Below, one piece after another: positions 9,529 to 64,000 of a stretch of 64,000 bases of DNA (positions are counted from its first letter, which is position 1; every line of letters begins with the position of its first letter). Made by a program: the position numbers and the translations under genes. Under the pieces are notes generated by a model. That model saw nothing but the letters and a program-made list of their open reading frames with translations, was not told the origin of the DNA and did not search any database. The DNA comes from a bacterium (GTDB lineage Bacteria > NPL-UPA2 > JAUVJM01). The stretch lies in contig JAUWGW010000006.1 of NCBI GenBank assembly GCA_030606215.1, positions 2,207 to 66,206 of the forward strand. Direction: 5' to 3'.

Positions 9529-9623
9529 AATTTAACATCGGACAGAGTGAAATTTAGCACTTAGTGTGGAATATTTCTGAAAAGGGGCAAAAACATGGAA
9601 ATGAAAGTAAAGGAGGGTTTGTC

Positions 9624-12374
9624 GTGCTTATAAAATCTGTATTGTTTGTTTGGTTAGCTCTTTGTTTTTCTTCTTTGGGTATCGCTGAAGAACAGGGGCT
9701 GGTAGCCTATTACGATTTTAACGAAGGCTCGGAGCTAATAGCACATGATAGGAGTGGAAATAAGAATGATGGGAAGATAATAGGAGCTACCTGGGTAAAG
9801 GGTAGATATGGCACTGCTTTAGAGTTTGATGGGATAAATGACTATGTTGACTGCGGGGAGAAACCAAGTTTTGATGTTAAAAATGTAGTTACCCTTGAGG
9901 CTTGGGTTTTACCTACGAAGGCCCCTTCTGGAGAACCAGCAATAGTAGGCAAAAAAATCTCCAGATATGCATTGACCTATTACAAAAATGGGAACTGTTA
10001 CTTCTATATATCTGCTGGTGTTAATCATTGTGTAGCTCGCCACCTTGCCGTTGGTGTTTGGCATCACATTGTAGCAACATTTGATGGAACAACAATGAAT
10101 CTGTACGTTGATGGAGATTTAAAGGACACTCGCACCTCACTTTACAAAACGATAGATAGTCGTGGTGGAAATCTTTTTATTGGCAAGCGGGATAACGATT
10201 ATTTCTGCGGCATAATTGACGAAGTTAGAATATATAATCGTACTTTATCCGAAGAAGAAATTCAAACCCATTATCAGTCAGATGCAAGAATGAAAAAAGC
10301 TGTAGTAAATAATAAAACCGGAACAGATACCATGACAAAATTCAGATATAGTCCTGATCAGAGAAGTGAACCCCTTCCACCCTGGCCGCCTGTAGAAGTG
10401 AGGAAGAGAAAAGTTATTGTATGGGGAAGAGAATACACCTTTTCTAATCTCCCTATCCCGGTCTCTATTATTTCTCAGGGGCAAGAGTTATTAGCTAGTT
10501 CTCCAAAGCTTGAAGTTCTGGTAGAGGGAAAACCGCTGGTATGGCAGCCAGTGCGAATTGAAAGAATTTCACCTGCGGTTGCCAAAGTAATTTCTCAGGG
10601 GAAAGCAGGAGACTTTCTAATTCAAGGAGAGAGCTTCGTTGAATTCGATGGGCTGGTCTGGGTTCAACTAAGGCTCAGTTGTACCCAGGAAAAGTTAGTC
10701 TCTATCAAAAATTTGAGCCTCAAAATTCCTCTGAAATCACCCCCAGTTCAGCTTTTTTCCCATCAGCTCGTTAGGACAGCTAATTTTCAAAGCTCGTTTC
10801 AGTTATTGACTACTCCAGAACAGTTCTATTACACTGGCGCATTGCCTCATGAAGGTTGGAAAGGAGAATTTACCCCACAGGTCTGGGTAGGAAATGTCGA
10901 TCGGGGACTGGCATGGATTAGTGAATCTCCACATTCATGGGAAATCGGTCATAAAGAAGCCGTATTGGAACTGATCCCAGACAGCAAAAAAGTGTGGCTG
11001 AACGTGACATTTGTATCAATTCCCATTAGATTGGAAAAGGAAAGGAATATAGAATTCGGACTAATGGCGACCCCTGTGAAACCTTGGCCAACTGATAGAT
11101 CTCTTTTGCGGGTATCCCATACTGGTGGGGGGGCTTTTGAAAAGCTCCGGGATACCTACATTATTCCGCGAAAGGAAGATGGAAAGACCGGACTTGACGA
11201 CTTTGCCAAGGAGGGGGTTCGTACGCTCGTCCTGTGGGACTACTACTCGGATGTCTGGGGGTTTCCAAAGATTGTCAGCTCTAAGAATAGAGAGTTTGCT
11301 AAGGCATTTGTACAGAAGGCACATAAGCTGGGTATTCGTGTCATGCCATATCAGGCTACGTTGCAGATCCTGCCCGAAAGACATCCTGAATTTGAGGAAC
11401 TCAAAAAGCGGTTTCAAGTTTATCCTCAGTGTGAAGAGAAGGGATATCACAAAGTTAAGCTAACAGATGACTTTATAATGTGGTATGCATCGCAAGCGGC
11501 AGCACATATGCGTGAATTTGACCTGGACGGTTACTACTTGGATACCTTTAATGACCCAGACCGTTTTAACCACAGTGATGTCGTAATGTATGATATACTG
11601 CAAACCCGAAAATTATACAAAGCCTTATATGAGATAGTTTACAAGGAAAAGGGTAAGCATGGCATTATTTTCCTTCATGATTCTGCACCGCCTCTATTTC
11701 CCCTGGCAAGTTTTTCTGACCTCCGCCTAACAGGTGAAATGCAATACTGGAGATTGGCTTTCCAGCACCTGACAAGAAGTAGCAATCCTTTGCTGCAGGC
11801 TATTCCACTTGAACAGATTCAGGTATGGGATATGGGGGAGGTTGTAGGGGTGCCAACGGTTTGGTGCTGGAAGCATCCCGACAAAGAGTATAGGGTGAGA
11901 ACCGGGTTGGATTTGCTAACATATAAGACTGGGGAGTTATTCGATACGGAGGAAGTGTTTAGCATTATGGGACTTTTTCACATACCAATTTTTGCTCGAC
12001 CTCTCTGGTGGCGATCCCCCAGCCCAGTGCCGAGAATGTCTCAGATATGGAAGCTGGAGGATGAATTTGGATTGCAGAATGCCAGATGGTACCCCTATTG
12101 GGAAAACGCAGGTCTCATTTCTGTCTCTCCCCCAGAAGTAAAAGTAAGCTTCTATCTCAAAGAAGACTGTTCATTACTAATGCATGTTGCTAATCTGGGA
12201 GAGAAGGAGAACATAACTCAGATTAAATTTACTAGCTCCTCCGGCCTGAAGAGCAAACGGTTTGAGATAATAAATGCTGTGGGAAGTTATCATGTTAGAG
12301 GAAGATTGGGGGGAGTGGAATTGAGATTACCTCCAGGTCAATCCACACTCTTGATGCTTCGGGTGAAGAAATAA
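9624..12374 (+). CDS. Secreted LamG/concanavalin-A-like lectin-domain protein with a large C-terminal domain of uncertain function (possibly glycoside-hydrolase-like TIM barrel)
   Basis: About 916 aa. GTG at 9624 has AAGGAGGG 7 nt upstream and yields a signal-peptide-like N-terminus (LIKSVLFVWLALCFSSLGIA). The LamG_3-like segment is GLVAYYDFNEGSELIAHDRSGNKNDGKIIGATWVKGRYGTALEFDGINDYVDCG...LYVDGDL. The track's ATG at 9564 is an alternative start. Confidence 0.55.
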   Translation: MLIKSVLFVWLALCFSSLGIAEEQGLVAYYDFNEGSELIAHDRSGNKNDGKIIGATWVKGRYGTALEFDGINDYVDCGEKPSFDVKNVVTLEAWVLPTKAPSGEPAIVGKKISRYALTYYKNGNCYFYISAGVNHCVARHLAVGVWHHIVATFDGTTMNLYVDGDLKDTRTSLYKTIDSRGGNLFIGKRDNDYFCGIIDEVRIYNRTLSEEEIQTHYQSDARMKKAVVNNKTGTDTMTKFRYSPDQRSEPLPPWPPVEVRKRKVIVWGREYTFSNLPIPVSIISQGQELLASSPKLEVLVEGKPLVWQPVRIERISPAVAKVISQGKAGDFLIQGESFVEFDGLVWVQLRLSCTQEKLVSIKNLSLKIPLKSPPVQLFSHQLVRTANFQSSFQLLTTPEQFYYTGALPHEGWKGEFTPQVWVGNVDRGLAWISESPHSWEIGHKEAVLELIPDSKKVWLNVTFVSIPIRLEKERNIEFGLMATPVKPWPTDRSLLRVSHTGGGAFEKLRDTYIIPRKEDGKTGLDDFAKEGVRTLVLWDYYSDVWGFPKIVSSKNREFAKAFVQKAHKLGIRVMPYQATLQILPERHPEFEELKKRFQVYPQCEEKGYHKVKLTDDFIMWYASQAAAHMREFDLDGYYLDTFNDPDRFNHSDVVMYDILQTRKLYKALYEIVYKEKGKHGIIFLHDSAPPLFPLASFSDLRLTGEMQYWRLAFQHLTRSSNPLLQAIPLEQIQVWDMGEVVGVPTVWCWKHPDKEYRVRTGLDLLTYKTGELFDTEEVFSIMGLFHIPIFARPLWWRSPSPVPRMSQIWKLEDEFGLQNARWYPYWENAGLISVSPPEVKVSFYLKEDCSLLMHVANLGEKENITQIKFTSSSGLKSKRFEIINAVGSYHVRGRLGGVELRLPPGQSTLLMLRVKK

Positions 12375-47170: not shown

Positions 47171-47644
47171 ATGAGAAAAATTCGGATCTATGTTGATACT
47201 TCTGTGATTGGAGGTTGTTGTGATCCTGAATTTGAAGAATGGTCTGAAGGGCTCCTTTCAGATTTCAAAGTAGGCATATTCTCTTTAGTTCTCTCTTCGG
47301 TTACAGATGCAGAGATTGAAGATGGCCCCGAAGAAGTTAAAAAAGTATATCAGGAGTTTAAGGATTGCGAGCATGAATTTCTTGACCTGGACCCTGAAGC
47401 AATAGAACTTGCTGAGGTATACCTGAGACATGGTATTTTATCCTCAAATTATAGAGATGATGCCCGGCATATTGCTATGGCAACTGTGGCAGGTGTAGAT
47501 ATATTGGTAAGCTGGAACTTTCACCATATTGTGCATTTTGACAAAATTCGGCAATTCAATGCAGTCAATCTTGAGAAAGGTTATAGAACAATATCAATCC
47601 ATTCGCCAAGGGAGGTGACAACCCATGCCAGTGAAAGCAGTTGA
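47171..47644 (+). CDS. PIN-domain protein (VapC-like putative toxin/RNase)
   Basis: 157 aa. IRIYVDTSVIGG (first acidic residue), DARHIAMATVAGVDILVSWNFHHIV (PIN C-terminal D...H.A.A motif). GGAGG RBS. Confidence 0.6.
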   Translation: MRKIRIYVDTSVIGGCCDPEFEEWSEGLLSDFKVGIFSLVLSSVTDAEIEDGPEEVKKVYQEFKDCEHEFLDLDPEAIELAEVYLRHGILSSNYRDDARHIAMATVAGVDILVSWNFHHIVHFDKIRQFNAVNLEKGYRTISIHSPREVTTHASESS

Positions 47645-47792
47645 GATGGTTAGAAAGATACGCGATAAGCACTATGCAGAGACAAAAGACTTATCAGCAG
47701 GGGAACAATTGGAATATATACGGAGGAAAGCTGAGAGACTATCCCGAGATTTCCAGGGCAGTCAGCATTCGGCAGCCGGCAAGGTAAGGTAG
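47625..47792 (+). CDS. Small ORF (55 aa) overlapping the 3' end of the PIN gene; possible cognate partner (antitoxin-like), hypothetical
   Basis: ATG at 47625 with GGAGGTG 7 nt upstream. It encodes MPVKAVEMVRKIRDKHYAETKDLSAGEQLEYIRRKAERLSRDFQGSQHSAAGKVR, a basic/helical sequence. Overlaps the PIN ORF by 20 nt in a different frame. Confidence 0.3.
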   Translation: MPVKAVEMVRKIRDKHYAETKDLSAGEQLEYIRRKAERLSRDFQGSQHSAAGKVR

Positions 47793-47869
47793 AGAACTGT
47801 CCATGGCTACTCTATAGCAGCCATTTCGTCTTTGGACCCCAAAAGCGAAATAATATGCTAAAATAACCC

Positions 47870-48003
47870 ATGGAAATGCCAAAAATAAAGTCCAAATTGG
47901 TCCATGCCCTCTTGGACTGCATCCCCATCACCGAAGTCCAAAAACAAGTCGGCCACAAAAGATTGGCAACCACCCAGATTTACTCTAATCTTGCACCAGA
48001 GTA
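47870..48003 (+). pseudogene. Tyrosine recombinase/integrase C-terminal relic (5'-truncated and frameshifted)
   Basis: Frame A (from 47870) gives ...SKLVHALLDCIPITEVQ, similar to R-H-T-F-A-T-H-L-L-E-x-G-x-D-L-x-x-I-Q. Frame B (from about 47941) gives KQVGHKRLATTQIYSNLAPE*, similar to LLGH..L.TTQIYTH with the catalytic Tyr. The two halves are in different frames. A stop lies immediately upstream of 47870. Confidence 0.45.
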
Positions 48004-48031
48004 GGTTAGGGAAGCGTATGAAAAATGATAG

Positions 48032-51698: not shown

Positions 51699-54338
51699 TT
51701 ATTCTCCCTTCATTATTTTTTCTATTCTCTGGCGTGCTAACTCTCCCTTCACCCCATCCGGGTCAGCAGACAGTATCTTCCTGTAAAAACTTACCGCTTC
51801 CTCAATCTTGCCCTGTTTTTCAAAGCAGATTGCGGCAGATTCCGTAGCCTTAAGCACCAGATTAAAACAGGCAGGATAGAGATAGACAACCTTTAAATAT
51901 TCAAAAATTGCTTCTTCAAATTCCCCGAGTTTATGGAAGCAGGAGGCTATTCTGAACTGTATCTCTGCAGACTGTTTTTCATCTCCTGTCTCCCCGATTT
52001 TTTCAAATGTCCGGACTGCTTCTCTATATCTACCTAATTTCTGTAAAGTTTTGCCCATCTGGAAGTATGTCTCTTGTGCAAATTCATCTTCGCCCTTCTT
52101 TACGATTTCACGATATATGCTCAATGCTTTATTATCCTTACCCTGAAGAGCTAATAGATTCCCAATTCGTAATTTCACTTCTGTAACTCTGGGATTCTCA
52201 GGGAAATTTCTTATAATCTCATTGAATTCTCCCGCAGCTTGCTCATATTTATTTTCTTTCTCAAAACATCTTCCGAGCCAGTAGTGAGCATCAGCTTTCG
52301 CCTCTTCCTCAGGAGATTCAATCAGTGATAATAATATATCTTTTGCCTTACCAAATTCTTTCTTCTCATAGAAGCCCCTTCCAAGCCAGAGTTTCGCTTC
52401 CGTTGAGCTCCTCCCTTCAGGGGAGAACGAGATATATTTCCCGAATATAAGTTCTGCAGTATCTAAATTGCCGAGCTGGAGCTGGCATAACCCCATCCTG
52501 AAATGAGATTCATGCGCTTCAACACTATCCGGGGAAAGTTTCCCGACCTTCTGGTAAGTGTTTATAGCTTCTTGATACAATTTTTTCTGGCATTGAATAT
52601 TACCCAGATTGAAGAAGGCTCCTGACAGAAGCTCACTTTCCGGGAACTTTTCAATAAAGTTTTCATAATACTTTCCTGCCTCTTCTATTTTCCCTGAGTG
52701 AAGCATACATACTGCAAGCCAGTATTGCGCATCATCGCTGATGTAATTTTCTCCATTAATAAGAGGTTTAAAAACAACTCCTGCCTTTTGAAACTTGCCT
52801 TCCTGATAAAGGAGCTTACCAGCCTGGAATTTTGCTAAGTTGGAAAGTTCCCCCTTAACATTATTATAACTTGCTATTGCTTCTTTGAGCAACCCTTCCT
52901 TAGTGAGACAATCCCCAGTCTTCATATATGAGAGGTCTTTATCTCCCACTTTCTCGAAAAATTTCCTTGCTTCCTGGTATTTGCCCATGTTTAAGAGTGA
53001 CTGCCCGATGCAACAGGTTGCCTCGGGCGTCAATTCGCTATCTGGAAACTTCTCACAGAACTTCTTGAATGCATCAATTGCGTCTCTGTAATTTCCTCCT
53101 TTGAAGAGGCTTGCTCCTATATAGAAATGACCTTTCTCTTCCCATTCTCTTCCAAACTCTCCGTCTATCAATTTCTTATATTCCTGACTTGCCTGTATAA
53201 ATTCCTCCCGGGAGAAGAAACTATTTCCCAATTGGTAAAGGATAACAGGTTGCGCTTTCTCCGCCCATTCACTTTGAGGGTAATTATTCAGCAAGTTTTC
53301 TAAAGTTGAGATAGCTTCCTTCTCCTTCTCAGGGTTTATTAAACATCTCCCGAGATGATACAGCGCAGGCGGCGTTACCTTGCTTGCGGGGAATTTCTCC
53401 AGCAGCTCACGATAAAGAATAATTGCAGTATTGAGTTCACCGCAGGATTCATGAATATAGGCAATAGCGTATTGAGCTTCATCAACATACTCGCTCTCGG
53501 GAAATGAAGTGATAAGTTTTTTAAAACTTTCGATTGCCTCCTCACTATTCCCGAGCTTGAAGAAGGTCATCCCAGTTCCATATTGAGCGTCATCAGCATA
53601 CTGGTTTTGGGGGAAATTCTTTAAGATCCTCTGAAAAGAGAATCGCGCTTCTTTCAATCTTCCAGATGAAAGATACACCTGGCCTAACCGGAATTGGGCG
53701 GGCGCGATGAGTTTACTGTCAGGGAATTTTGCAATGATAGTCTTGAATGAAGATATTGCATCCCCTAACAGGTTCATTTTGATGAGGCAGATGCCTCTTG
53801 AAAAAAGTGCGTGTTCAATGTAAGGAGAGTCGGGATATTTTTTCTGTAATTGTAGATATATTTCGCATGCCTCCTCAAATTTATTAGCTTTGATGAGCGC
53901 CTCAGCGAGCCAGTATGTAGCCGCTGGTGCAAACTCACTTTCTGGATAATCTCGCAGAAACTTTTCAAAAGTAGAGATGGTTTTAGCAAAATCATTTTCT
54001 CCAAAGAAACATTTGCCAATCCGGTATACGGCTTTCTCTCTTACCTCATTAGATTTACTGGCAAGCGTATATTCCTCTCTTGCCTTTGAAAATTTTCCCT
54101 GTTTGAATTCACATTCTGCGAGAAAAAAATGAGCCAGTGGCACTTTTTTACTTCTGGGATATTTAATGATGAATTTCTCAAGCTGCTTCCCCGCTATTTC
54201 ATAAAGTCCATCGGAATAAGCGCCTTCTGCCAGTGAGAAATCTTCTTCCTCCCCGGAGAAGGCAAACTGAGTTATTATGGAAAGAAATACAACAACAAAA
54301 ATGGGGAAAGGTCCTAATTCCTTATGCCGCATGGACAT
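51699..54338 (-). CDS. Large secreted tetratricopeptide-repeat (TPR) protein
   Basis: 879 aa. N-terminal signal peptide. More than 20 repeats of the ...A.Y..G.......G.Y..A...F..........P.S..A..A... type. Co-oriented directly downstream of exbB. Confidence 0.8.
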   Translation of the reverse strand: MSMRHKELGPFPIFVVVFLSIITQFAFSGEEEDFSLAEGAYSDGLYEIAGKQLEKFIIKYPRSKKVPLAHFFLAECEFKQGKFSKAREEYTLASKSNEVREKAVYRIGKCFFGENDFAKTISTFEKFLRDYPESEFAPAATYWLAEALIKANKFEEACEIYLQLQKKYPDSPYIEHALFSRGICLIKMNLLGDAISSFKTIIAKFPDSKLIAPAQFRLGQVYLSSGRLKEARFSFQRILKNFPQNQYADDAQYGTGMTFFKLGNSEEAIESFKKLITSFPESEYVDEAQYAIAYIHESCGELNTAIILYRELLEKFPASKVTPPALYHLGRCLINPEKEKEAISTLENLLNNYPQSEWAEKAQPVILYQLGNSFFSREEFIQASQEYKKLIDGEFGREWEEKGHFYIGASLFKGGNYRDAIDAFKKFCEKFPDSELTPEATCCIGQSLLNMGKYQEARKFFEKVGDKDLSYMKTGDCLTKEGLLKEAIASYNNVKGELSNLAKFQAGKLLYQEGKFQKAGVVFKPLINGENYISDDAQYWLAVCMLHSGKIEEAGKYYENFIEKFPESELLSGAFFNLGNIQCQKKLYQEAINTYQKVGKLSPDSVEAHESHFRMGLCQLQLGNLDTAELIFGKYISFSPEGRSSTEAKLWLGRGFYEKKEFGKAKDILLSLIESPEEEAKADAHYWLGRCFEKENKYEQAAGEFNEIIRNFPENPRVTEVKLRIGNLLALQGKDNKALSIYREIVKKGEDEFAQETYFQMGKTLQKLGRYREAVRTFEKIGETGDEKQSAEIQFRIASCFHKLGEFEEAIFEYLKVVYLYPACFNLVLKATESAAICFEKQGKIEEAVSFYRKILSADPDGVKGELARQRIEKIMKGE

Positions 54339-54383: not shown

Positions 54384-55073
54384 CTACATTGCCATCTTAT
54401 GATCTTTCTGTCTGTTCACAACTTTTTTCCAGAGCCTATCATCAAGATGACTCACATCATTAATTGAAATGAGAACCGGGACTGCATCATTTTCTCCCTG
54501 GGATTTAAAAAGAATTCTCGCTATACCAGTTTCCAAAATTCCAATATGTGCATAGGCTAACGGAAGATGCCACTGGAGTAGATGAGACAGAATCACAATA
54601 CTCATGCCACCATGACATACAAGACAAATTGTTTTTTCTCTATTGGGTTCTTCTACTTTATATATAAATCCATCTCTTACATAACTGTATTGTGAGAGTA
54701 ATTTATCAAGCCCCGAAGAGACTTCTTCATAAACCTCTCTCAACTCTTTCCCTGCCCAGTATCCATCCTCCCAGAAAATTGGGTCAGCAAATTTCCCTTT
54801 CTTGAGATATTCGTTATGGGGTTTCGCCCAGGGGTAATCTCCCTTATCAACTTCCCTGAGCCAGTGAAGGACTTCTGGCTTAATACCTGTAGCCTTAGAG
54901 ATATGCTCTGCTGTCCTGATAGCCCTTCCAAGAGGACTCACATATAGGGCATCTATTTTTTCAAGTCTTGTGATTCTCTCCGCAAGTTGAACTGCCTGTT
55001 GTTCTCCTTCTTCAGTAATTGAATCTGTATCGTAGATTGGATTCGCATGCCTGACAATTAGGATTTGAAGCAT
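54384..55073 (-). CDS. Histidine phosphatase (phosphoglycerate-mutase-like) family protein
   Basis: 229 aa. LQILIVRHANPIYD...LYVSPLGRAIRTAE... fits the RHG-type catalytic-core architecture. Confidence 0.55.
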   Translation of the reverse strand: MLQILIVRHANPIYDTDSITEEGEQQAVQLAERITRLEKIDALYVSPLGRAIRTAEHISKATGIKPEVLHWLREVDKGDYPWAKPHNEYLKKGKFADPIFWEDGYWAGKELREVYEEVSSGLDKLLSQYSYVRDGFIYKVEEPNREKTICLVCHGGMSIVILSHLLQWHLPLAYAHIGILETGIARILFKSQGENDAVPVLISINDVSHLDDRLWKKVVNRQKDHKMAM

Positions 55074-55148
55074 TTTTTCACACTCCTTCCCTCATACAAT
55101 TATATGAACTAACGGGATGAAAATCAATAGAATTGATTTTGCATCATT

Positions 55149-56465
55149 CTATTTTGGCGCCATACAAAAATCTTTTGCTTTCGCCAGGTCTTCGGGTATC
55201 AAAAATCTTACAGTTGTTCGTTCAATAGCACGCTCACCTCGGAGTGCTAAATTTAAGCAATAAGCTTTGTCAGGTTTATATGTGCCAATGAAACTCCTAA
55301 GGGATTTGCTTATCTTGAATTCTCTTAAATCAACAGCTTTGACTTCAAAAGGAATGGGTTTGAGACTTGGAATCACAAAGTCTACTTCTGCGCCAGCCTT
55401 GGTCCGCCAAAAGTTTATGGGACTTGAATACTTCAAGCGCTCGCCCAAACAAAGGTAGGAGAAATTCTCAAAAAGGCTGCCCTTATCAGGGCGAAATTCG
55501 AAATCCCCAAAGCTTCCGATAGCAAAATTTCTTATACCGTGGTCACGAAAATAAACCTTAGGGCTTTTCAAGAGTTCTTTCCTGGGATTTCTATGAAAAG
55601 GTTTTACAAAATCCAGGATAAAGGTTTGTTCCAAATAAAACAGGTAGTGTTCTAGTGTATTCTTATGGATACTCAAAGTGTTGGAGAGCTCATGCTTATT
55701 TACCAGATTTCCTATTTGCGAAGAAAGAATCTTAACAAGGTTGCGGAATGCCTCTTCGTTTTCGATGTTAAGAAAAGACTTGATATCCTTCTCGATGTAA
55801 CTTTGGAATATCTCTTTGAGAAGCTGCAGTTTTAAATCTTCTTCCTTGGCCAGAGCAACTGCAGGGTATCCTCCATATGTGACATAATGATTCAAAACTC
55901 TTCTAAAGTCCTCTTTTTTCTCTATGACTTCATTGACACTCTTCCTTGGGAATAGGGCCTGAGAAAGTTCTTCCAGGTTGAAAGGATTAAGACGAAAAAC
56001 TACCTTTCTTCCAGTAAGAGCTTCATGAATTTTGCTTCTAATCTCCAGTGAACTTGAACCTGAGACTATCAGTTTAGCTGGTAGGTGAAGATCATAAATA
56101 CCTTTTAGAAATAAACCCGGTTCCTTTAAACGTTGAACTTCATCAATCAACACGTAGGACTTCCTTTTTGATTTGATTATTAAATCAACCAAATAATCCG
56201 GATTATCAAAAAACTGAAGCTGATGAGGAACATCAAGGTTAAAATAGTATATGTTGTCAGTCTTCGGGAGAAGGGCATCGTTTATTAACTGATAAAGGAG
56301 AACACTTTTTCCGGTTTGGTGAGCACCAGTAACAATAATTATTTCTTCTCTCTCAATCCATGGTGCTATTTTCTCTTTTATCTTACGCTGAACTACCTGG
56401 GGTGGCAGCTTTACCCCAAGCCTTTCCAACTCCTTTTTCTTTTTGCTATATCTCATTTTTGCCAT
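55149..56465 (-). CDS. AAA+-type ATP-binding protein with C-terminal DUF4143-like domain
   Basis: 438 aa. Walker A IIIVTGAHQTGKSVLLYQL and Walker B LIDEVQRL. The C-terminal region is typical of the ATPase+DUF4143 family often found next to R-M and defence genes. Confidence 0.7.
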   Translation of the reverse strand: MAKMRYSKKKKELERLGVKLPPQVVQRKIKEKIAPWIEREEIIIVTGAHQTGKSVLLYQLINDALLPKTDNIYYFNLDVPHQLQFFDNPDYLVDLIIKSKRKSYVLIDEVQRLKEPGLFLKGIYDLHLPAKLIVSGSSSLEIRSKIHEALTGRKVVFRLNPFNLEELSQALFPRKSVNEVIEKKEDFRRVLNHYVTYGGYPAVALAKEEDLKLQLLKEIFQSYIEKDIKSFLNIENEEAFRNLVKILSSQIGNLVNKHELSNTLSIHKNTLEHYLFYLEQTFILDFVKPFHRNPRKELLKSPKVYFRDHGIRNFAIGSFGDFEFRPDKGSLFENFSYLCLGERLKYSSPINFWRTKAGAEVDFVIPSLKPIPFEVKAVDLREFKISKSLRSFIGTYKPDKAYCLNLALRGERAIERTTVRFLIPEDLAKAKDFCMAPK

Positions 56466-56589
56466 GATGCAACTCCCTCACTATTTGCACATGTACTTTT
56501 AGCAAGGTTATTATAACATAGCAAAATAGTTAGTCAAGTACTTCTTGCCTTATCACGGAAATCCAGTTTGGTGTTCCTGCCCTTCCGTC

Positions 56590-56700
56590 GTTTAGACCTT
56601 GAGTCGTTTGTGAGGCGTTTATTAGGCATTTTAGGCATTTATTAGGCGTTTGAGCCCTTTGTGAGCCTTTCATGATTCCTTTGAGTCCTTTCAATCAAAT
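56590..56700. repeat. Low-complexity region with ~10-bp periodic T-rich motifs (cgtttattaggc / atttattaggc / ctttgtgagc / ctttgagtcc)
   Basis: Read directly. It lies in the 430-bp intergenic region between the hsdS 3' end and the ATPase 5' end. It is not a CRISPR (no spacers; unit about 10 bp). Confidence 0.3.
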
Positions 56701-56895
56701 ATTTTTGTCCGATATCTGTCCATTATTTGTCCTTTATCATTCATTCATAAGCTCGTTGCTGCAAGAATATATAACCTTTTTCCTATTTTGCGCAGGGGAC
56801 AGCCTGTTTTCTCCCTCCAGTTACGCCTTTGAATGGTATTTCTTGAAATTCCCAGGATCTCTGATATTTGTTCAACAGTTAAAATATCTTTACAC

Positions 56896-57732
56896 TCATA
56901 CTCTGACTTTTCCACTTAATAATACCTGCGTCAAACCTTTCTTGATATCTTCCAATCTTTCCTCATGAACAATTTCCTTATTTATTTCTTCATCAACAGA
57001 TGACAAAATTTCAGCAATCTTTTCCTGTTCGGCAAGAGTGGGAAGAGGAATTTTTGTCTTCTTAAACTTCTTATGGCCGATTCCGCGGGTCAGCAATTCC
57101 TGCATCAACCCCCTTTTTAGCTCTTTCGTCTTTTCTATGATCTCCTTCCTTTTCTCAATTGCCTCATCTACGGTTGATAGGATCTTGGCGATCTTTTTTT
57201 GTTCGGGCAGAGGTGGAAGGGGTATTACAATTCTCTCAATGCTTTTTCCACTAACATTAGGCTGTGCTCCGCCGGCAGCATCTATGAGCAAATCTTCTTT
57301 GAACCTTTTCGTCAACACTACCTGTCCTAAATATCTCTTTGCAATACGGTTTGAATCTTCAATCATAAATCTGCCAACACGTTGGTTAAGCAATGCTGGT
57401 AGGTCTTTCTTTGAAACAACCCCTATTTTTCCGGTTGTTGCACCGGACATAGCAACAAGTACATCCCCATCTTCAAGCAGAAAATCACTAAATTCCTTAG
57501 CAAAAGAGGCTGGAAGATATACACATTCATTTAACATAATCCCACTAGAGGTTACATTTGATATTCTGACTAAAGGCACACCTCTTCCTTTATAATCGCT
57601 ACTTTCAAAAGCGAATCCTCCCTGGAGACGTACTGTTTCCCCAAGATTGACAATTTCCCAATCCACTGGAATCTCGCCAATCTCCGTTTTCTTAAATTTG
57701 TCTTCGGTTCTTAAGCTATCTGCTTGTACCAC
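56896..57732 (-). CDS. hsdS: Type I restriction-modification specificity subunit, single-TRD (half-size) form
   Basis: 278 aa. One variable target-recognition domain followed by the conserved helical spacer, IPLPPLPEQKKIAKILSTVDEAIEKRKEIIEKTKELKRGLMQELLTRGI. A second conserved repeat (IPLPTLAEQEKIAEILSSVDEEI...) follows and the protein ends without a second TRD. Confidence 0.8.
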   Translation of the reverse strand: MVQADSLRTEDKFKKTEIGEIPVDWEIVNLGETVRLQGGFAFESSDYKGRGVPLVRISNVTSSGIMLNECVYLPASFAKEFSDFLLEDGDVLVAMSGATTGKIGVVSKKDLPALLNQRVGRFMIEDSNRIAKRYLGQVVLTKRFKEDLLIDAAGGAQPNVSGKSIERIVIPLPPLPEQKKIAKILSTVDEAIEKRKEIIEKTKELKRGLMQELLTRGIGHKKFKKTKIPLPTLAEQEKIAEILSSVDEEINKEIVHEERLEDIKKGLTQVLLSGKVRV

Positions 57733-58768
57733 TTTTGGCTCCCAAGACCCTGGTTATAAAGTTCTGGAATTCTTTCTCATATTTTTCAGCAGTAATATTG
57801 ATGTACGGAGCAGGAGGTAAGTCAAGACCGCTTGCCAAAAATCCAATACTGATTCCCTCCATCGCCTGACGCAGCTTTGAACTCCTCATATAATCTGACC
57901 CGGTTTTTTGAATATCGGCTAAGACATTCCACACATCTGTCAGCGCAGCGTAGAGTGAAATCCAATCAACCCAAAGCGGCTTTTTCGCATCTTCGTATTC
58001 CATTCCACAGAGAAATTCCCACCACCTTTTCTCTGGCAGCCAATACTCTATCTTCCGTTTACCTTTAATGCGCGTAAGCACTAAACCTGATTCTGCAAGT
58101 TCAATCAATGCATCCTGTGTTCCCCGAACAGACAGGCCGATTGCCTTAGCTACTTCGGAAGGATGTCCTGCGCCGTAGACTAAAAGATACAAAATACATT
58201 CAGAGCGTGAACCTATACCAAACATTGCTCTCAACAGAAAACGGATGGTGTTTCCTGCCATGACCGGTACGGGCTTCGACGTTTTCCGCACCGTAAAACT
58301 TTCGCGCAAAAATCCGTATTCTTTGAATATGTTTGATTCCGTAACCGGTTTTGGGTAGGGCTTTCCTTCTTTCGTTTTGAAAAGCATTTCGTCCTGCGTA
58401 CTTGTTTTAGCTCTATGGAGCAATGCTAAAGTCTTCCATTTACGCTGGTATGTTCCTGCCTCGCGCGACAGAAAACAAGCAACCGCGCTCATAAGTCGTT
58501 GCGTTCTTTCATCTTTCTGTTTCATAATTCCGCGCAGGCGCTGAATATCAATCCACTTTCCGTTTACAACAAGCCAGTCGAGTATCTCATCAAAGAAGCG
58601 TGGCTCGTACCGACCCATTTCCAGTGAAAAGAGAAGGAGAGCTTCCAGATCGATCGCCCATTCATGCTTTGAGCGCGCACCACCTGCTACACCCAGGGCA
58701 GACCACTGCCCCCAGAGAAAATCTAAAACTTCCTTCAGAAAGAATTCCCTAAAGTTTATCTGCGACAT
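57716..58768 (-). CDS. Hypothetical 350-aa protein with central winged-helix DNA-binding-like segment, embedded between hsdM and hsdS
   Basis: A wHTH-like segment ECILYLLVYGAGHPSEVAKAIGLSVRGTQDALIELAESGLVLTRIKGKRKIEYWL lies at about residues 200-255. No HEPN R-x4-6-H motif. Overlaps the upstream NTase gene by 20 nt. Confidence 0.5.
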   Translation of the reverse strand: MSQINFREFFLKEVLDFLWGQWSALGVAGGARSKHEWAIDLEALLLFSLEMGRYEPRFFDEILDWLVVNGKWIDIQRLRGIMKQKDERTQRLMSAVACFLSREAGTYQRKWKTLALLHRAKTSTQDEMLFKTKEGKPYPKPVTESNIFKEYGFLRESFTVRKTSKPVPVMAGNTIRFLLRAMFGIGSRSECILYLLVYGAGHPSEVAKAIGLSVRGTQDALIELAESGLVLTRIKGKRKIEYWLPEKRWWEFLCGMEYEDAKKPLWVDWISLYAALTDVWNVLADIQKTGSDYMRSSKLRQAMEGISIGFLASGLDLPPAPYINITAEKYEKEFQNFITRVLGAKSGTSR

Positions 58769-59354
58769 CTTTGTAACCTATTTCTTTAAGAAAATCCTTA
58801 AGGACTTTTCTGTAACCCTCGGAAATGTCATGTGTCATACTCCAACGAGCCGCTTTTTCTAATTCCTCTGCAATAGGTTTTAATGCAAGTAGGTCACCGT
58901 AATGAACATCACCTCTATCCCGATCTACTACAGCATAGAGCTTAAAATGAATCTGGTCATACCGGCTGAGAAAGTGAATTGTTAGATTCTTTCCATAAGT
59001 ACGGGTTTCCACCCTATCCATAAGACCGTCAGGCAATCCTAAATCCATAACAGACGCCGGTCCGGGATTAAGCCAGTTGTCGGTCAAATCAAAATCTTTC
59101 TGCACTCTCGTGGCTGCATCCTCAACTGCAGGATTCATAGGTTTGGTGGCTTTGACTAAAGTAATAGAGCCGTCACTCTTCTTATCTACAAATGCGACAA
59201 CATCCACGTCTTCGGTAACACGGCTCACGTACCCCAATATATTGAGAGCTGCCCCTCCGCACACAACCATTTCGCAGTGCATCACCCCCCGCACTTCCAG
59301 TTGCTCGGCGAGTGCTGTGAGTACAGATTCTATTTGTTGTTTGCCTTCAAACAT
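58749..59354 (-). CDS. AbiEii-like (DUF1814-type) nucleotidyltransferase-fold protein, short form; putative toxin-like NTase
   Basis: 201 aa. MVVCGGAALNILGYVSRVTEDVDVVAF fits the AbiEii/NTase-fold motif (GGTAL ... R.S.DIDh), i.e. a Gly-rich loop followed by a DxD acidic pair. It starts 3 nt after the hsdM stop. Confidence 0.5.
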   Translation of the reverse strand: MFEGKQQIESVLTALAEQLEVRGVMHCEMVVCGGAALNILGYVSRVTEDVDVVAFVDKKSDGSITLVKATKPMNPAVEDAATRVQKDFDLTDNWLNPGPASVMDLGLPDGLMDRVETRTYGKNLTIHFLSRYDQIHFKLYAVVDRDRGDVHYGDLLALKPIAEELEKAARWSMTHDISEGYRKVLKDFLKEIGYKDVADKL

Positions 59355-59356
59355 GC

Positions 59357-60844
59357 TTACACCCTATAACGCAATTCTCTTAAATAGCCTGACACCTTCC
59401 TATCAATATTTTTATATTCTTCCTTGAGTTTCTTCAGGTCATCGATAGTTTTCTGAATATCAATGTTCTCTTCTTGTTCTGTAACATCAATATATCGTGT
59501 GATGTTAAGGTTGTGGTCGTTCTCCCTTATTTCATTAATCCGTACAGGACGACAATACTTATCTATCGTGCTATATTCTCCAAAGGCTGATACAATTTTC
59601 TCAATGTCTTCTTTACGCAGCTTATTCTGCTTCTTTCCCTCTTGATAGTCGCCTGCACCGTAAAGGAAGAACGCCTTTCCTCTCCTCTCTTTAGGCTTGT
59701 CTCTGTTGATTATGAACAAGCACGCAGGAATGCCCGCGCCATAGAATAACTTAGGTGGCAAGCCTATGACGCCTTCAAGGAGGTCTTCTTCGACTATACC
59801 CTTTCTAATCTTTCCTTCTGCCCCTCCGCGGAATAAGACTCCATGCGGTAGGACAACACCGACTCTCCCTTTAGGGTTCGCAATAGCTATCATGTGCTGG
59901 ACAAATGCGTAGTCACCGTATCCCTTCGGAGGTATCCCGAACCTGAACCTTTTGTAGGGGTCATTCTGAGCATTTTCATAGCCCCAATTCTTGAGTGAAA
60001 AAGGCGGATTTGCTATTACAATATCAAATTGCATTAGTTGTCCCTTGGTGAGCAGCTTAGGTTCCCGTAAGGTATCAGCTCTCCGGATCTTTGCACTTTG
60101 TAATCCATGAAGGAGCAGATTCATCTTGCAGATTGCCCATGTCCCAACATTGATCTCCTGACCATACAGAGCAATGTTCTTAGGATTTTGCCCCTTTCCC
60201 TGTAAGTGGCACACGGATTGTATCAACATTCCACCTGAACCACACGCAGGGTCACAAATTCTCATTCCTTCTTTCGGATCCAGAATGTCTACTAATAGCT
60301 CAACAACCTCCTTGGGTGTATAGAACTCCCCTCCTTTCTTGCCAGCGCTTGAAGCAAATTGGGCGATAAGATATTCATATGCATCACCCAGGATATCGGG
60401 TTTCTCCAAATCTTCATTTCTCAACCTAATTTTGGAGAAGTGGTTGATAAGCTGGGAAAGTATATGGTCCGGCAGCCGGTCTTTATCGTTAAAGTCAACA
60501 GCAGAAAGAACGCCTTCCAGAGTTTCCGGGTTTTCTTCTTCCAAGGAGTCGTTTGCTTTGTTGATAGCTTCACCTATGTTCTGGGTCAGTGATTTAAGAT
60601 AATCCCATCGCGCCCTTTTGGGAACGAAAAAGTCGTGATAATCGCGGTCTTCATACGCAATCTTTTTGCTGCCTGTCTCATGTAGTATTCTCTCAACCTC
60701 TTCGTCAAACACGTCGGATAATCGCTTCAAAAACAAGAGCCCGAAAATGTAATTCTTGTAATCTGCGGCGTCAATATGACCCCGCAGAATGTCCGCGGAT
60801 GCCCAGAGGTGATACTTCAGGGCTTGCGAGTTTACCTTTTCCAT
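59357..60844 (-). CDS. hsdM: Type I restriction-modification DNA methyltransferase subunit (N6-adenine)
   Basis: 495 aa. N-terminal HsdM_N-like region, AdoMet motif I MRICDPACGSGGML and catalytic motif IV IVIANPPFS. AAGGAAAGG RBS. Confidence 0.9.
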   Translation of the reverse strand: MEKVNSQALKYHLWASADILRGHIDAADYKNYIFGLLFLKRLSDVFDEEVERILHETGSKKIAYEDRDYHDFFVPKRARWDYLKSLTQNIGEAINKANDSLEEENPETLEGVLSAVDFNDKDRLPDHILSQLINHFSKIRLRNEDLEKPDILGDAYEYLIAQFASSAGKKGGEFYTPKEVVELLVDILDPKEGMRICDPACGSGGMLIQSVCHLQGKGQNPKNIALYGQEINVGTWAICKMNLLLHGLQSAKIRRADTLREPKLLTKGQLMQFDIVIANPPFSLKNWGYENAQNDPYKRFRFGIPPKGYGDYAFVQHMIAIANPKGRVGVVLPHGVLFRGGAEGKIRKGIVEEDLLEGVIGLPPKLFYGAGIPACLFIINRDKPKERRGKAFFLYGAGDYQEGKKQNKLRKEDIEKIVSAFGEYSTIDKYCRPVRINEIRENDHNLNITRYIDVTEQEENIDIQKTIDDLKKLKEEYKNIDRKVSGYLRELRYRV

Positions 60845-60867
60845 GAGAGGTTCCTTTCCTTATGTGC

Positions 60868-60921
60868 TGTATATTTACTTACTACGTAAGTAAATATACA
60901 ACATGTTAGGAGAGTTGTCAA
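60868..60921 (-). promoter_or_regulatory. hsdM promoter (TTGACA-17nt-TATATT) with an overlapping perfect 15-3-15 inverted repeat (tgtatatttacttac-tac-gtaagtaaatataca), a putative operator
   Basis: On the minus strand: TTGACA (plus 60916-60921), a 17-nt spacer, TATATT (plus 60893-60898). The palindrome spans 60868-60900 and overlaps the -10 and the TSS. It ends 24 nt upstream of the hsdM ATG. Confidence 0.45.
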
Positions 60922-61313
60922 GTTTTATTTCTTATCTGTATAGTTTGACTGCACTAACAGTGAGGATAAACTATAATAAGAGGGATATTATTCGCTTTGA
61001 AAAATACCGCTCTTCTCTCTTAGGCTAATATGACCATGCGGTGTAACTATGATGTGGTCTATCGCCGTAATACCAACCGCAAGGCATGCTGAAATGATAA
61101 ACTTAATCTAAGAGATAAAAATACTTTTTCTTACATAAAACGAGCCTTTCCATAGTAAAGGTTAGTAGTGACTACCTTCTACGAAAATTGTTCTGACGAG
61201 AAAATTTCATTTACCGTCTAAGCAATTTCCGGAAAGTCCCGCGACGGTAATTATAGGGATTTGTGGATATGCATTGGATTCGGGGTCCGGGACGACCCCG
61301 ACTACCTGTGATG

Positions 61314-61403
61314 TGGCGGAGAGGCCGGGATTCGAACCCGGGGTGGAGTTGCCCCCACAACTGCTTAGCAGGCAGCTGCCTTCAACCGCTCGGCCACCTC
61401 TCC
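61314..61403 (-). tRNA. tRNA-Ser (anticodon GCU), class II with long variable arm
   Basis: Reverse complement is GGAGAGGTGGCCGAGCGGTTGAAGGCAGCTGCCTGCTAAGCAGTTGTGGGGGCAACTCCACCCCGGGTTCGAATCCCGGCCTCTCCGCCA. Perfect 7-bp acceptor stem, T-arm CCGGG-TTCGAAT-CCCGG, anticodon loop CU-GCU-AA, encoded CCA. Confidence 0.85.
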
Positions 61404-61611
61404 TGATCTGGTTACCAAGTAGGCTGTGTTATTCTCCCACATTTAACTTACGTCTGTCAAACAAAATTTATTGGAAGTGTGGGAAGTGAGTTATGGTTGG
61501 TGGCAGGATTCAGTACAGATGATTATGGAGAGGATAGCTCAGGCAATTGTTAGATTAGGCTAATAAAGGACCGATTATTGTATTTGACATAAAGCCGAAG
61601 GTAAATTTAAG

Positions 61612-61640
61612 TTGACAAAATTATATTTGTATGTTTTAAT
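61612..61640 (+). promoter_or_regulatory. Putative sigma70 promoter (TTGACA-17nt-TTTAAT) for the abiEi-like gene
   Basis: Read directly: ttgaca aaattatatttgtatgt tttaat. It lies about 30 nt upstream of the AAGGGGGG RBS and ATG 61671. Confidence 0.35.
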
Positions 61641-61670
61641 TCTTAATAGATACCTAAGGGGGGTATGTAA

Positions 61671-62450
61671 ATGGCTTCAAAAAATACTATTTTAACGGAA
61701 AAACGGCTCAAAGATATTGAGGATATTATTGCTTCTTTTGGTCGAATTGTATCCACTGACGATGTTTATAAGACTTTAGGCGGAAAATACTCAAAATTTG
61801 TCCTAAAGAAAAGGATATACGAGTTACGAGAAAAAGGGTGGCTTATCCCTTTAAAAAGGGGGCTTTATTTTATCTCGGATATTTCTTCACGTGGTTTTGT
61901 GAATATCTCGCCTTTTATCATTGCCAGTGCTTTTGATAAAAATTCTTATATTTCATTAGATTCGGCTTTAAGTTTCTATGGTCTCTTTGAGCAGATGCTA
62001 CGCACGACTTCATCTGTAACCAGCCTTAAGTCCAAAAAATACGTATTTCAGGATAACACTTATCGATATCTCAAGATAAACAAAAAACTATATTTTGGTT
62101 TTAGAACTGAAAATTTGGAAGGCTATTATGTCAAAGTAGCAGAGCTTGAAAAGGTAGTTTTGGATTACCTCTATTTTAAGAATGACACCTATTCCATAGA
62201 TTTGTTGTTAGAGAAACTACAAGAGGCAAAAGATAGGCTCGATTTTAAGAAACTCTTTAATTATGCACGAAAATTTCCCGAAACAACCAAGAGAAAATTA
62301 GGATTTATTTTAGATTTATTTAAAATAGATACCGAAGAGCTGCACAAGGATGTAGAAATGAAAGGCTATAGTAAGCTTACTCCCAATTCAAAAAAATTTA
62401 ACGCAAAATGGAGGCTTTATTATGAAGATAGATTTACTGGACAGGTCTAG
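61671..62450 (+). CDS. AbiEi-family (type IV toxin-antitoxin antitoxin-like) protein
   Basis: 259 aa. The N-terminal region ...IVSTDDVYKTLGGKYSKFVLKKRIYELREKGWLIPLKRGLYFISD fits the AbiEi_4 wHTH pattern (L..L...G.L..L.RGLY). Confidence 0.55.
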   Translation: MASKNTILTEKRLKDIEDIIASFGRIVSTDDVYKTLGGKYSKFVLKKRIYELREKGWLIPLKRGLYFISDISSRGFVNISPFIIASAFDKNSYISLDSALSFYGLFEQMLRTTSSVTSLKSKKYVFQDNTYRYLKINKKLYFGFRTENLEGYYVKVAELEKVVLDYLYFKNDTYSIDLLLEKLQEAKDRLDFKKLFNYARKFPETTKRKLGFILDLFKIDTEELHKDVEMKGYSKLTPNSKKFNAKWRLYYEDRFTGQV

Positions 62451-62571
62451 GCTTGAGATTTTAAATAAACGCGGCCCCAGATACCACTTACAGGATGCCG
62501 AAAAAGATTATTTTTTATCGGTGATTCTTAGCTCTGCTCAGAATGACGGGAGATTGTTTCCCCCGTATTAA
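62422..62571 (+). pseudogene. AbiEii-like nucleotidyltransferase toxin gene reduced to a 49-codon N-terminal stub
   Basis: ATG at 62422 overlaps the abiEi-like gene end. It encodes MKIDLLDRSRLEILNKRGPRYHLQDAEKDYFLSVILSSAQNDGRLFPPY* (AEKDYxLxxIL is the typical AbiEii N-terminus). It stops before the NTase core and runs into the convergent uvrA 3' end. Confidence 0.4.
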
Positions 62572-62599
62572 ATGCGGGGTCGCAATGACACTGTAATAG

Positions 62600-64000
62600 T
62601 CACATTTTCAGCCGCATAACTTTTCTTAAAAATTTCCCTGTGTAGGACTTGTCAACCCCGGCAACTTTTTCTGGCGTTCCTTCAGCTACAATCCAGCCGC
62701 CTTCATCCCCTCCTTCCGGGCCGAGGTCAATAATATAGTCGGCTGTTTTGATGACATCCAGATTGTGTTCAATAACGACAACAGTATTCCCTGCATCGGT
62801 AAGCCGCGCCAGCACATTCAGGAGTTTATCAATATCTGCAAAATGTAAGCCGGTTGTCGGCTCATCAAGGATGTAAAGTGTTTTCCCCGTGCTTTTCTTA
62901 CTGAGTTCTTTTGAAAGTTTCACTCTCTGCGCTTCACCTCCCGAGAGAGTTGTAGCTGATTGCCCAAGCTTTATGTAGCCCAGTCCGACATCGTAAACAG
63001 TCTGCAGTTTCTTCTTTATCTGGGGAATATTCTTGAAGAATTCAAGATTCTCCTCCACTGACATTTCAAGAACATCAGCAATATTTTTCCCTTTATAACG
63101 GATCTCAAGTGTTTCTCTGTTGTAACGCCTTCCTTTACACTCCTGGCATCTGACATAGACATCCGGGAGAAAATGCATTTCAATTTTTATGATACCACCT
63201 CCCTGGCAATTCTCGCATCTCCCCCCTTTCACATTAAAACTGAACCTGCCGGGTTTGTAACCGCGCATCCTTGCTTCAGGGACACGAGAGAGAAGCTGCC
63301 GTATGAAAGCAAATACTCCTGTATACGTAGCCGGGTTAGAGCGGGGGGTTCTCCCAATGGGGGACTGGTCTATCACTATAACCTTATCAATATGCTTAAC
63401 TCCCAGGAGACGATCGTGCTCACCGGGTTTAGCATGAGATTTGTATAAAATCTGGTTGAGGGCTTTGTGCAGGATTTCATCGATAAGTGTGCTTTTACCG
63501 GAACCTGATACTCCGGTAACACATGTAAGGACCCCTACCGGTATGCGCACATCAATATTTTTAAGATTGTTTTCCCTTGCTCCTTTTATAGTGATAAATT
63601 TAGCGCCAGTTGCTCTTCGCTTCTCGGGTATTCTAATGGAAAGTGCACCTTTTAGATATTTCCCTGTTAGAGACCTGCTGCATCTCAAAATCTCGGAGAG
63701 TTTGCCGCAGGCAACTACTTCGCCTCCACTCAACCCTGCTCCAGGTCCAAGGTCAATTATGTAGTCTGCACTGCGGATTGTCGTCTCATCATGTTCCACG
63801 ACAATAACTGTGTTTCCCAGATCCCTCAATTGACGCAGAGTCTTGAGGAGCCTGCGGTTATCTCGCTGATGAAGACCAATACTCGGCTCATCCAGTATGT
63901 AGAGAACTCCCGCAAGTCCTGAACCAATCTGTGTTGCCAGGCGAATACGTTCTGCTTCACCTCCGGAAAGTGTTCCTGCGGCTCTATCCAGCGTCAGATA
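62600..64000 (-). CDS. uvrA: Excinuclease ABC subunit A, C-terminal ~465 aa; 5' part lies beyond the window edge
   Basis: The minus frame is open to the window end. Zn-finger CxxC pairs (CENCQGGG...CQECKGRRY), Walker [11 protein letters not shown] and the ABC signature [12 protein letters not shown] are present. The revcomp of 63830-64000 continues ...[16 protein letters not shown]... The track's 63829 is an internal Met. Confidence 0.9.

Follow-up and report, generated by a model that had tools for sequence, protein, structure and literature searches.

The abiE remnant beside tRNA-Ser(GCU)

We analysed the surroundings of the tRNA-Ser(GCU) gene in a 64-kb stretch of a metagenome-assembled bacterial contig (JAUWGW010000006.1; the whole 64,000-nucleotide stretch is called the window, and coordinates count from its first letter), where genes of the abortive-infection system AbiE lie between the tRNA gene and the 3' half of uvrA. 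The initial annotation had placed here, in this order, the tRNA gene, a gene for an AbiEi-like antitoxin, a 49-codon stub of the AbiEii toxin gene and uvrA; ARAGORN, Rfam and the list of open reading frames (ORFs) confirm both the coordinates and the gene order. The features on which the argument turns are the following.

61314-61403, minus strand: tRNA-Ser(GCU) gene, 90 nt with a long variable arm (ARAGORN; Rfam tRNA, 60.9 bits)
61612-61640, plus strand: abiE cassette promoter, TTGACA (61612-61617), 17-nt spacer, TG-n-TTTAAT (61635-61640); across 19 cassettes of different contigs these positions show at least 80% conservation
61671-62450, plus strand: abiEi, intact ORF of 259 amino acids (aa), N-terminal winged helix-turn-helix (wHTH) and AbiEi C-terminal domain (PADLOC, fold match, relatives)
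62422-62532, plus strand: abiEii remnant, first 37 codons (tblastn with the AbiEii of a relative, L002; DNA alignment)
62422-62571, plus strand: 49-codon ORF, 49 aa, starting as abiEii and overlapping abiEi by 29 nt (ORF list)
62533-62599, no strand: 67 nt of DNA unrelated to abiEii, from the deletion junction to the uvrA stop, read from the sequence and without similarity to any relative's abiEii
62600-64000, minus strand: uvrA 3' half, convergent with abiE and running past the window end, 67-88% identical to proteins named excinuclease ABC subunit UvrA

The protein encoded at 61671 is AbiEi, as had been proposed from the sequence. Of the PADLOC models for AbiEi, 23 match it (lowest E 9.5e-34), and its close homologues carry the NCBI name AbiEi family antitoxin. 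Its scores lie under the curated cut-offs of two Pfam AbiEi models (AbiEi_4 and AbiEi_1; 19.1 versus 25 and 17.4 versus 22.2) and of NCBIfam TAA_AbiEi (30 versus 150), and phmmer matched no solved structure to it. An AlphaFold model made with 31 homologues as input (predicted local distance difference test score, pLDDT, 84; predicted template-modelling score, pTM, 0.80) has as its only significant PDB matches the AbiEi of Streptococcus agalactiae (6Y8Q; the best, E 6e-7 over 208 columns) and, after it, Rv2827c of Mycobacterium tuberculosis (1ZEL). By profile and fold the protein combines the wHTH with the C-terminal domain that marks AbiEi proteins (COG5340, AbiEi_4/AbiEi_1), and it falls in a divergent AbiEi subfamily of 257-261 aa.

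Related loci, cited here by L numbers, come from one scan of representative genomes, one scan of metagenomes and contig look-ups. The closest relatives of the window AbiEi, at 96% identity, lie on contigs L002 (JGI) and L003 (ENA). L002, a 5.5-kb contig, has the order tRNA-Ser, abiEi and a full 251-aa AbiEii (PF08843) with the same 29-nt overlap; L003 has the same arrangement, with the first 142 residues of AbiEii up to the contig end. Whether abiEii is full length in related genomes had been posed as a check on the initial annotation, and in the nearest relatives it is, at the same place. About 22 distinct loci have abiEi followed by a full abiEii, and an AbiEii of 250-251 aa with the same overlap occurs in L002, L004, L007-L011 and about 15 more loci. 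In 17 intact cassettes the conserved stretch begins some 60 nt before the ATG of abiEi and goes no further than the stop of abiEii; the part ahead of abiEi is a promoter (CTTGACA-N17-TGnTTTAAT) that comes with repeated GTAT/ATAC motifs, all of it intact in the window. AbiEi is described as autoregulating through repeats in its promoter (PMC7319586), and the GTAT/ATAC motifs downstream of the abiE promoter are candidate AbiEi operator sites. Next to the two contigs at 96%, similar cassettes at 75-88% are found in dozens of metagenomic contigs, and the closest carriers are metagenome-assembled genomes (MAGs) named Ratteibacteria and Omnitrophota (both with at least 82%) and Planctomycetales (78-80%), with AbiEi 78-85% identical overall. 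The abiE cassette is a compact unit of about 1.57 kb, from promoter to stop codon, horizontally spread among uncultivated bacteria. On viral contigs, searched by protein and by DNA pattern, there were no relatives of the cassette, nor of the nucleotidyltransferase (NTase) of the DUF6036 family that lies on the other side of the tRNA.

In the window, abiEi is without sign of decay: gene, promoter and ribosome-binding site are intact, and 28 of the 28 family-invariant residues are present. Compared with L002 it shows 17 synonymous and 11 nonsynonymous differences, a ratio of nonsynonymous to synonymous rates (dN/dS) of 0.16 within a range of 0.13-0.16; on the window branch, polarised with L006, there are 9 synonymous and 5 nonsynonymous changes, the latter all conservative. 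The GC content of the window cassette is 0.33 versus about 0.42-0.45 in the neighbouring DNA.

The toxin gene is in a different state. Over residues 1-37 the stub agrees with the L002 AbiEii N-terminus at 100% identity, which makes it the 5' remnant of the cognate abiEii, as had been suggested; tblastn with the L002 protein places residues 1-37 at 62422-62532 and finds no further piece anywhere in the 64-kb window. In the DNA alignment, identity between the window and its relatives is about 96-98% from the tRNA to 62532 and then ends abruptly. For its last 12 codons and its stop (62569-62571), the 49-codon ORF reads into unrelated DNA, and it ends 28 nt from the uvrA stop; a hairpin lies at 62561-62579, in the 67-nt segment before uvrA. 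The L002 AbiEii has VFKGGT from residue 49 (KGGT at about 51), and this phosphoacceptor and NTase core motif is absent from the stub, which matches nothing in Pfam or PADLOC and lacks the NTase core, with KGG[ST] and catalytic aspartates, of an AbiEii toxin. The full DUF1814/PF08843 NTase gene that directly follows abiEi in the relatives is, thus, missing in the window.

An artefact of assembly would offer a trivial account of the same pattern, either as a chimeric join at the edge of a multi-copy cassette or as a sequencing error that hides a full abiEii. The window does come from a metagenome assembly, the cassette is the kind of high-identity sequence, common to many genomes, at which assemblers break or misjoin, and in one MAG abiEi is split over two contigs (L012 and L014). 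Yet the Logan contig L001, the one other contig on record, on which uvrA is called as a 548-aa partial gene, repeats 2643 nt over the junction at 100% identity, and analogous truncations are found in unrelated assemblies, including the many contigs and samples of a Ratteibacteria type described below. A frameshift is ruled out as the cause: no abiEii-like DNA follows 62532 in any frame, and only 67 nt remain before uvrA. The correction of a sequencing error near 62570, which the initial annotation had allowed for, could therefore not restore abiEii; since homology stops at 62532, its loss is a real deletion or rearrangement. We consider an artefact very improbable.

Probable decay of an AbiE module

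We favour, with a probability of roughly 0.85, the view that the locus is the remnant of a canonical AbiE module beside tRNA-Ser, its antitoxin gene intact and its toxin gene cut, left by ordinary gene decay in a variable hotspot. In this lineage a cassette of AbiEi, a wHTH autorepressor and antitoxin, and AbiEii, a DUF1814 NTase toxin, sits just upstream of tRNA-Ser(GCU). In this genome a deletion or rearrangement took abiEii from codon 38 on, and the remnant now runs into the 67 nt beyond the uvrA stop. The catalytic core and the phosphoacceptor of the toxin are lost. By analogy with the AbiEi of S. agalactiae, the window AbiEi is most likely still made and would repress its own promoter, with no cognate toxin to neutralise, and it could still act on a cognate AbiEii arriving from outside. 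The 49-residue stub peptide is most likely an inert by-product without function.

The comparison with described systems is consistent with this view. The AbiE of Lactococcus lactis and S. agalactiae is an abortive-infection toxin–antitoxin (TA) system, originally classed as type IV and recently proposed to be type VII. Expression of AbiEi and repression of its own promoter form part of the family background (PMC3985639, PMC7319586). In S. agalactiae, AbiEi makes AbiEii phosphorylate itself at T65, the Thr of KGGT in the NTase core, and so neutralises it (bioRxiv 10.64898/2026.01.19.700257). Like these systems, the window AbiEi has the two-domain fold (6Y8Q being its best PDB match), and in relatives abiEi lies directly upstream of, and overlaps, a PF08843/DUF1814 NTase gene in a compact bicistronic cassette with its own promoter. 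Unlike them, the window has a toxin gene of 37 codons, which cannot work as a TA or abortive-infection module, and its AbiEi belongs to a subfamily (257-261 aa) that scores under the cut-offs of Pfam and NCBIfam and shares about 17% identity with 6Y8Q. The antitoxin fold is also shared with MenA3-MenT3 of M. tuberculosis (1ZEL, Rv2827c; TM 0.60 normalised to the query), a family in which an NTase toxin acts on tRNA and is neutralised by antitoxin-induced autophosphorylation (PMC7450476, PMC11375011); here, however, the sequence identity is about 11-12% and the window has no toxin. An intact antitoxin beside a deleted toxin is, finally, what orphan antitoxins and degenerate chromosomal TA loci look like, and surveys report orphan AbiEi-like genes (PMC6504116, PMC8562856).

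Some points weigh against this account. The expression and autorepression of abiEi are read across from the family. The low dN/dS of abiEi spans time before and after the truncation and comes from small counts, and it is no proof of selection on the orphan gene. The window is a metagenome-assembled contig, and L001 may share the same reads. The ancestral DNA on the right side of the junction was not recovered, as the contigs of the two UvrA relatives, L047 and L048 (88% and 83%), end 158-175 nt past uvrA and cannot be aligned there; a simple deletion and a more complex rearrangement are therefore not told apart.

A further possibility shares the origin of the locus with gene decay and differs in the present function of abiEi: the orphan may be kept by selection, either as an anti-addiction or immunity gene against near-identical incoming AbiEii or as a domesticated regulator. 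That orphan antitoxins may serve in anti-addiction is an idea from the TA literature. The intact abiEi and the low dN/dS on the window branch (9 synonymous versus 5 conservative nonsynonymous changes) are what such selection would leave; these counts are tiny, however, and include time before the truncation. Near-identical cassettes do circulate in metagenomes, at 96% in L002 and L003 and at 75-88% in dozens of contigs, yet no close cassette relative was found on viral contigs. Three other lineages carry an abiEii cut at codons 31-52 beside an intact abiEi, and the Ratteibacteria type is fixed in many samples; its 11 copies are, however, clonal, with 0-1 differences, and thus give no selection signal. 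Regulatory roles of AbiEi beyond its own operon are reported in Mesorhizobium (PMC8436566), whereas TA decay commonly leaves orphan antitoxins behind as by-products (PMC6504116, PMC8562856). We regard selective retention of the orphan as possible but doubtful.

If the locus is a decayed AbiE module, as we prefer, it is a fresh instance of known things, namely AbiE, an orphan antitoxin and a tRNA hotspot. It offers a clean, well-delimited case of the decay of a TA defence cassette in which the toxin was deleted and the antitoxin kept, and it carries little weight for mechanism. For annotation, the 49-codon ORF is better entered as a pseudogene remnant, and AbiE should not be counted as functional in this genome. 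Of wider interest is one lead only, that several lineages have abiEii truncated at a similar point.

Truncated abiEii in four lineages

Among about 28 lineages, abiEii stubs with a 5'-proximal break were found as follows.

Window, 62422-62532, plus strand: breakpoint at abiEii nt 111 (alignment to L002)
Ratteibacteria type (L006, L016-L025), L006 1290-1389: breakpoint at about nt 99, in many samples
L014/L051, L014 410-502: breakpoint at nt 93, compared with L040, a 96%-identical intact relative
L050, L050 282-440: breakpoint at about nt 157, followed by an ORF6N-like ORF

In these four independent lineages all breakpoints fall inside the first 160 nt of the 756-nt abiEii, those of the three lineages besides the window at codons 31-52, and no longer stub was found among the approximately 28 lineages. 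The accompanying abiEi is complete in the window, in the Ratteibacteria loci and in L051, and is cut by the contig end in L014 and L050; its promoter is intact too in the two lineages that allow it to be read, the window and the Ratteibacteria type. Three of the breakpoints lie within 19 nt of a 726-nt target, which has a chance probability of about 0.2%, calculated post hoc and on very few events. The Ratteibacteria-type truncation is fixed, with the same context from sample to sample in a large number of samples, and has entries in 91 index blocks. When the AbiEii N-terminus (residues 1-53) was searched against 1.8 billion representatives, it returned many short proteins with unrelated tails and breaks at residues 28-62; this query is blind to later breaks and may pick up contig-end fragments, and its result neither confirms nor refutes the clustering. 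A hidden cis element that would keep the stub is not apparent either: across codons 10-37 in the 17 intact cassettes there is no special conservation peak, save for the abiEi/abiEii overlap and an EKDYF motif.

We know of no described feature that corresponds to similar 5'-proximal breakpoints across four lineages. One reading is that this cassette family repeatedly and non-randomly loses abiEii while keeping abiEi, either through selection of the orphan AbiEi as immunity (anti-addiction) or through a T-rich tract that would act as a hotspot of deletion or insertion. We think this unlikely; the breakpoint pattern is suggestive, a small lead and not a finding. If a proper survey bore the clustering out, it would speak to the question of whether selection keeps orphan antitoxins as anti-addiction genes.

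A T-rich tract (GATTATTTTTTA) lies at abiEii nt 85-96. In the Ratteibacteria loci (L016-L025; e.g. L016 4520-6815) abiEi and a 38-codon stub stand between a gene for an extracytoplasmic function (ECF) sigma factor and a 130-aa ORF in the position of an anti-sigma gene, all in the same orientation. L002 has an ECF sigma/anti-sigma pair after its intact abiE, and its sigma factor is only 29% identical to that of the Ratteibacteria loci. None of the L002 genes for ECF sigma, anti-sigma and flavodoxin has a counterpart in the window.

Exchangeable cargo on both sides of the tRNA gene

The tRNA-Ser gene is the sole tRNA that ARAGORN finds in the 64 kb. It lies on the minus strand, and therefore its 3' end (61314) points to lower coordinates, toward hsdM and a block of restriction-modification (R-M) and NTase genes. 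The initial annotation had described this as an R-M island in an integration hotspot at the tRNA 3' end. The features on this side, with the putative promoter of the tRNA, are the following.

55135-61313, minus strand: variable cargo slot at the tRNA 3' end, bordered by 55075-55134 (homologous to L002 996-1052) and by the tRNA
55149-56465: DUF4143/AAA_14 ATPase at the far end of the slot (Pfam; PADLOC candidate defence family PDC-S01, E 9e-88)
56745-56915: HTH_17 ORF (Pfam/PADLOC)
56896-57732, minus strand: half-size hsdS, 278 aa, one target-recognition domain and then two conserved repeats back to back (Pfam/PADLOC)
57716-58768, minus strand: 350-aa ORF with a central wHTH (marginal wHTH matches)
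58749-59354, minus strand: DUF6036 NTase (Pfam DUF6036, E 2e-9)
59357-60844, minus strand: hsdM, intact (N6_Mtase, E 5e-109)
61431-61460, minus strand: putative tRNA promoter, TTGACA, 18-nt spacer, TG-GAGAAT (consensus scan, 10/12 matches)

The hotspot itself is borne out by comparison. Among all fetched loci, tRNA-Ser is on the contig only in the window, L002 and L046, and abiE adjoins it only in the window and L002; by alignment, the L003 contig begins within the tRNA. The tRNA sequence is identical in L002 and 96.7% identical in L046. Homology to L002 brackets the slot, with L002 1-414 matching 53887-54255 at 80% and L002 996-1052 matching 55075-55134 at 82%. The interval from these borders to the tRNA 3' end is taken up in the window by a 6.2-kb R-M/NTase/ATPase block and in L002 by a 1.5-kb pair made up of an HTH-SocA/Panacea gene and a 126-aa ORF; in L046 the same side carries hsdM, the NTase and the start of the next ORF, at 94.5% nucleotide identity to the window. 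On the 5' side of the tRNA, the window has abiEi with the abiEii remnant, L002 has abiEi with a full abiEii and L046 has the C-terminal part of a PIN_3 gene. A correction to the initial annotation is that the abiE flank, too, differs from relative to relative; the two flanks vary and assort independently.

The integration part of the proposal fared less well. No att-like repeat of the tRNA 3' end is present anywhere in the window (35-nt pattern with up to 3 mismatches; blastn-short with the tRNA and its flanks), where the initial annotation had proposed to look for them near 47.8-48.0 kb or 55-56.5 kb; general direct repeats in 44-64 kb are 14-24-mers at chance level. No integrase lies in 55135-61313, and its sole trace in the window is a 44-aa fragment at 47870-48004. 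Since neither an att repeat nor an integrase was found, the hotspot reading rests on the comparison of relatives, and the tyrosine or serine recombinase with att copies that marks a tRNA-integrated island is missing. The locus resembles tRNA-associated islands and defence hotspots in the variable defence and TA cargo that lies against the tRNA 3' end and is not the same from one relative to the next. It departs from them in having no integrase, att direct repeat or recognisable mobile-element backbone, in a tRNA 5' flank that varies too and in an R-M set without hsdR. As read from these sequences, tRNA-Ser marks a two-sided variable hotspot for TA and defence cargo, the moving vehicle of which is not visible. 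Its wider meaning is that of a tRNA gene which gathers, on either flank and with no integrase in sight, TA and defence cargo that can be exchanged.

The term R-M island needs a similar qualification: hsdM and a half-size hsdS are present, but the block has no ORF of hsdR size next to it, and the sole window ORF above 900 aa (9564-12374) is glycoside-hydrolase-like. The Type I set of hsdM, hsdS and hsdR is thus incomplete, and should be annotated as such.

Within this block, the NTase at 58749-59354 had been regarded as AbiEii-like, which led the initial annotation to propose that the orphan AbiEi, 2.3 kb away, regulates it in trans, or else that abiE is simply a decaying second AbiE locus. The short distance and a weak, sub-threshold AbiEii match are what speak for regulation or neutralisation in trans: against PF08843 the NTase scores 21.4 bits with a cut-off of 22.5, over its N-terminal ~60 (63) residues only, and PADLOC gives E 4e-4. 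Its best family, however, is DUF6036 (E 2e-9), and to the lost cognate AbiEii (L002 type) it is barely similar (47 residues aligned, 23% identity, E 0.005). Nor does it have the setting of an abiEii gene, with abiEi directly upstream: hsdM precedes it and the 350-aa ORF follows. It sits within the hsdM-hsdS operon and overlaps by 20 nt the 350-aa wHTH ORF, which is its likelier partner; the pair is conserved in L046 (2210-3053). In L046, moreover, the hsdM-NTase-ORF block adjoins tRNA-Ser with a PIN gene in place of abiE, so that the NTase exists without AbiEi, and L002 has the same abiE with no such NTase on its 5.5-kb contig. The 350-aa ORF matched no curated family, with marginal wHTH hits only, and a plasmid search gave nothing for the NTase and a weak wHTH match for the ORF. 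A link between AbiEi and the DUF6036 NTase is unsupported, and regulation in trans seems to us extremely improbable. Of the alternative that had been offered, decay holds, given the clean break at 62532/62533, and the word second does not, the presumed other AbiE locus having been overstated.

The putative tRNA-Ser promoter is a sigma-70-like site situated 20-55 nt 5' of the tRNA start. Both of its hexamers are kept in L002, L003 and L046, while the L046 spacer and upstream DNA diverge. The spacer between this promoter and the abiE cassette holds a 54-nt indel (window 61488/61489 versus L002 2715-2768) that separates the window from L002 and L003. The segment just past the tRNA 3' end, 61054-61313, has no match in L046.

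Farther from the tRNA, 47171-48004 holds a PIN-like ORF (47171-47644), a 55-aa ORF and the 44-aa C-terminal fragment of a tyrosine recombinase (47870-48004; Phage_integrase, E 6e-4), at 13 kb from the tRNA; an older mobile element has probably left its scar here. At 54384-55134, compared with L002 520-1052, a histidine phosphatase gene in the window takes the place of a flavodoxin gene in L002; this second, small replacement slot is bordered by a TPR gene on one side and about 60 nt of conserved upstream DNA on the other. Just upstream of the hsdM start, at 60867-60903, lies a near-perfect palindrome of about 15 + 15 nt (TGTATATTTACTTAC...GTAAGTAAATATACA), kept in L046 (660-710), which could be an operator or a hairpin in the 5' untranslated region.

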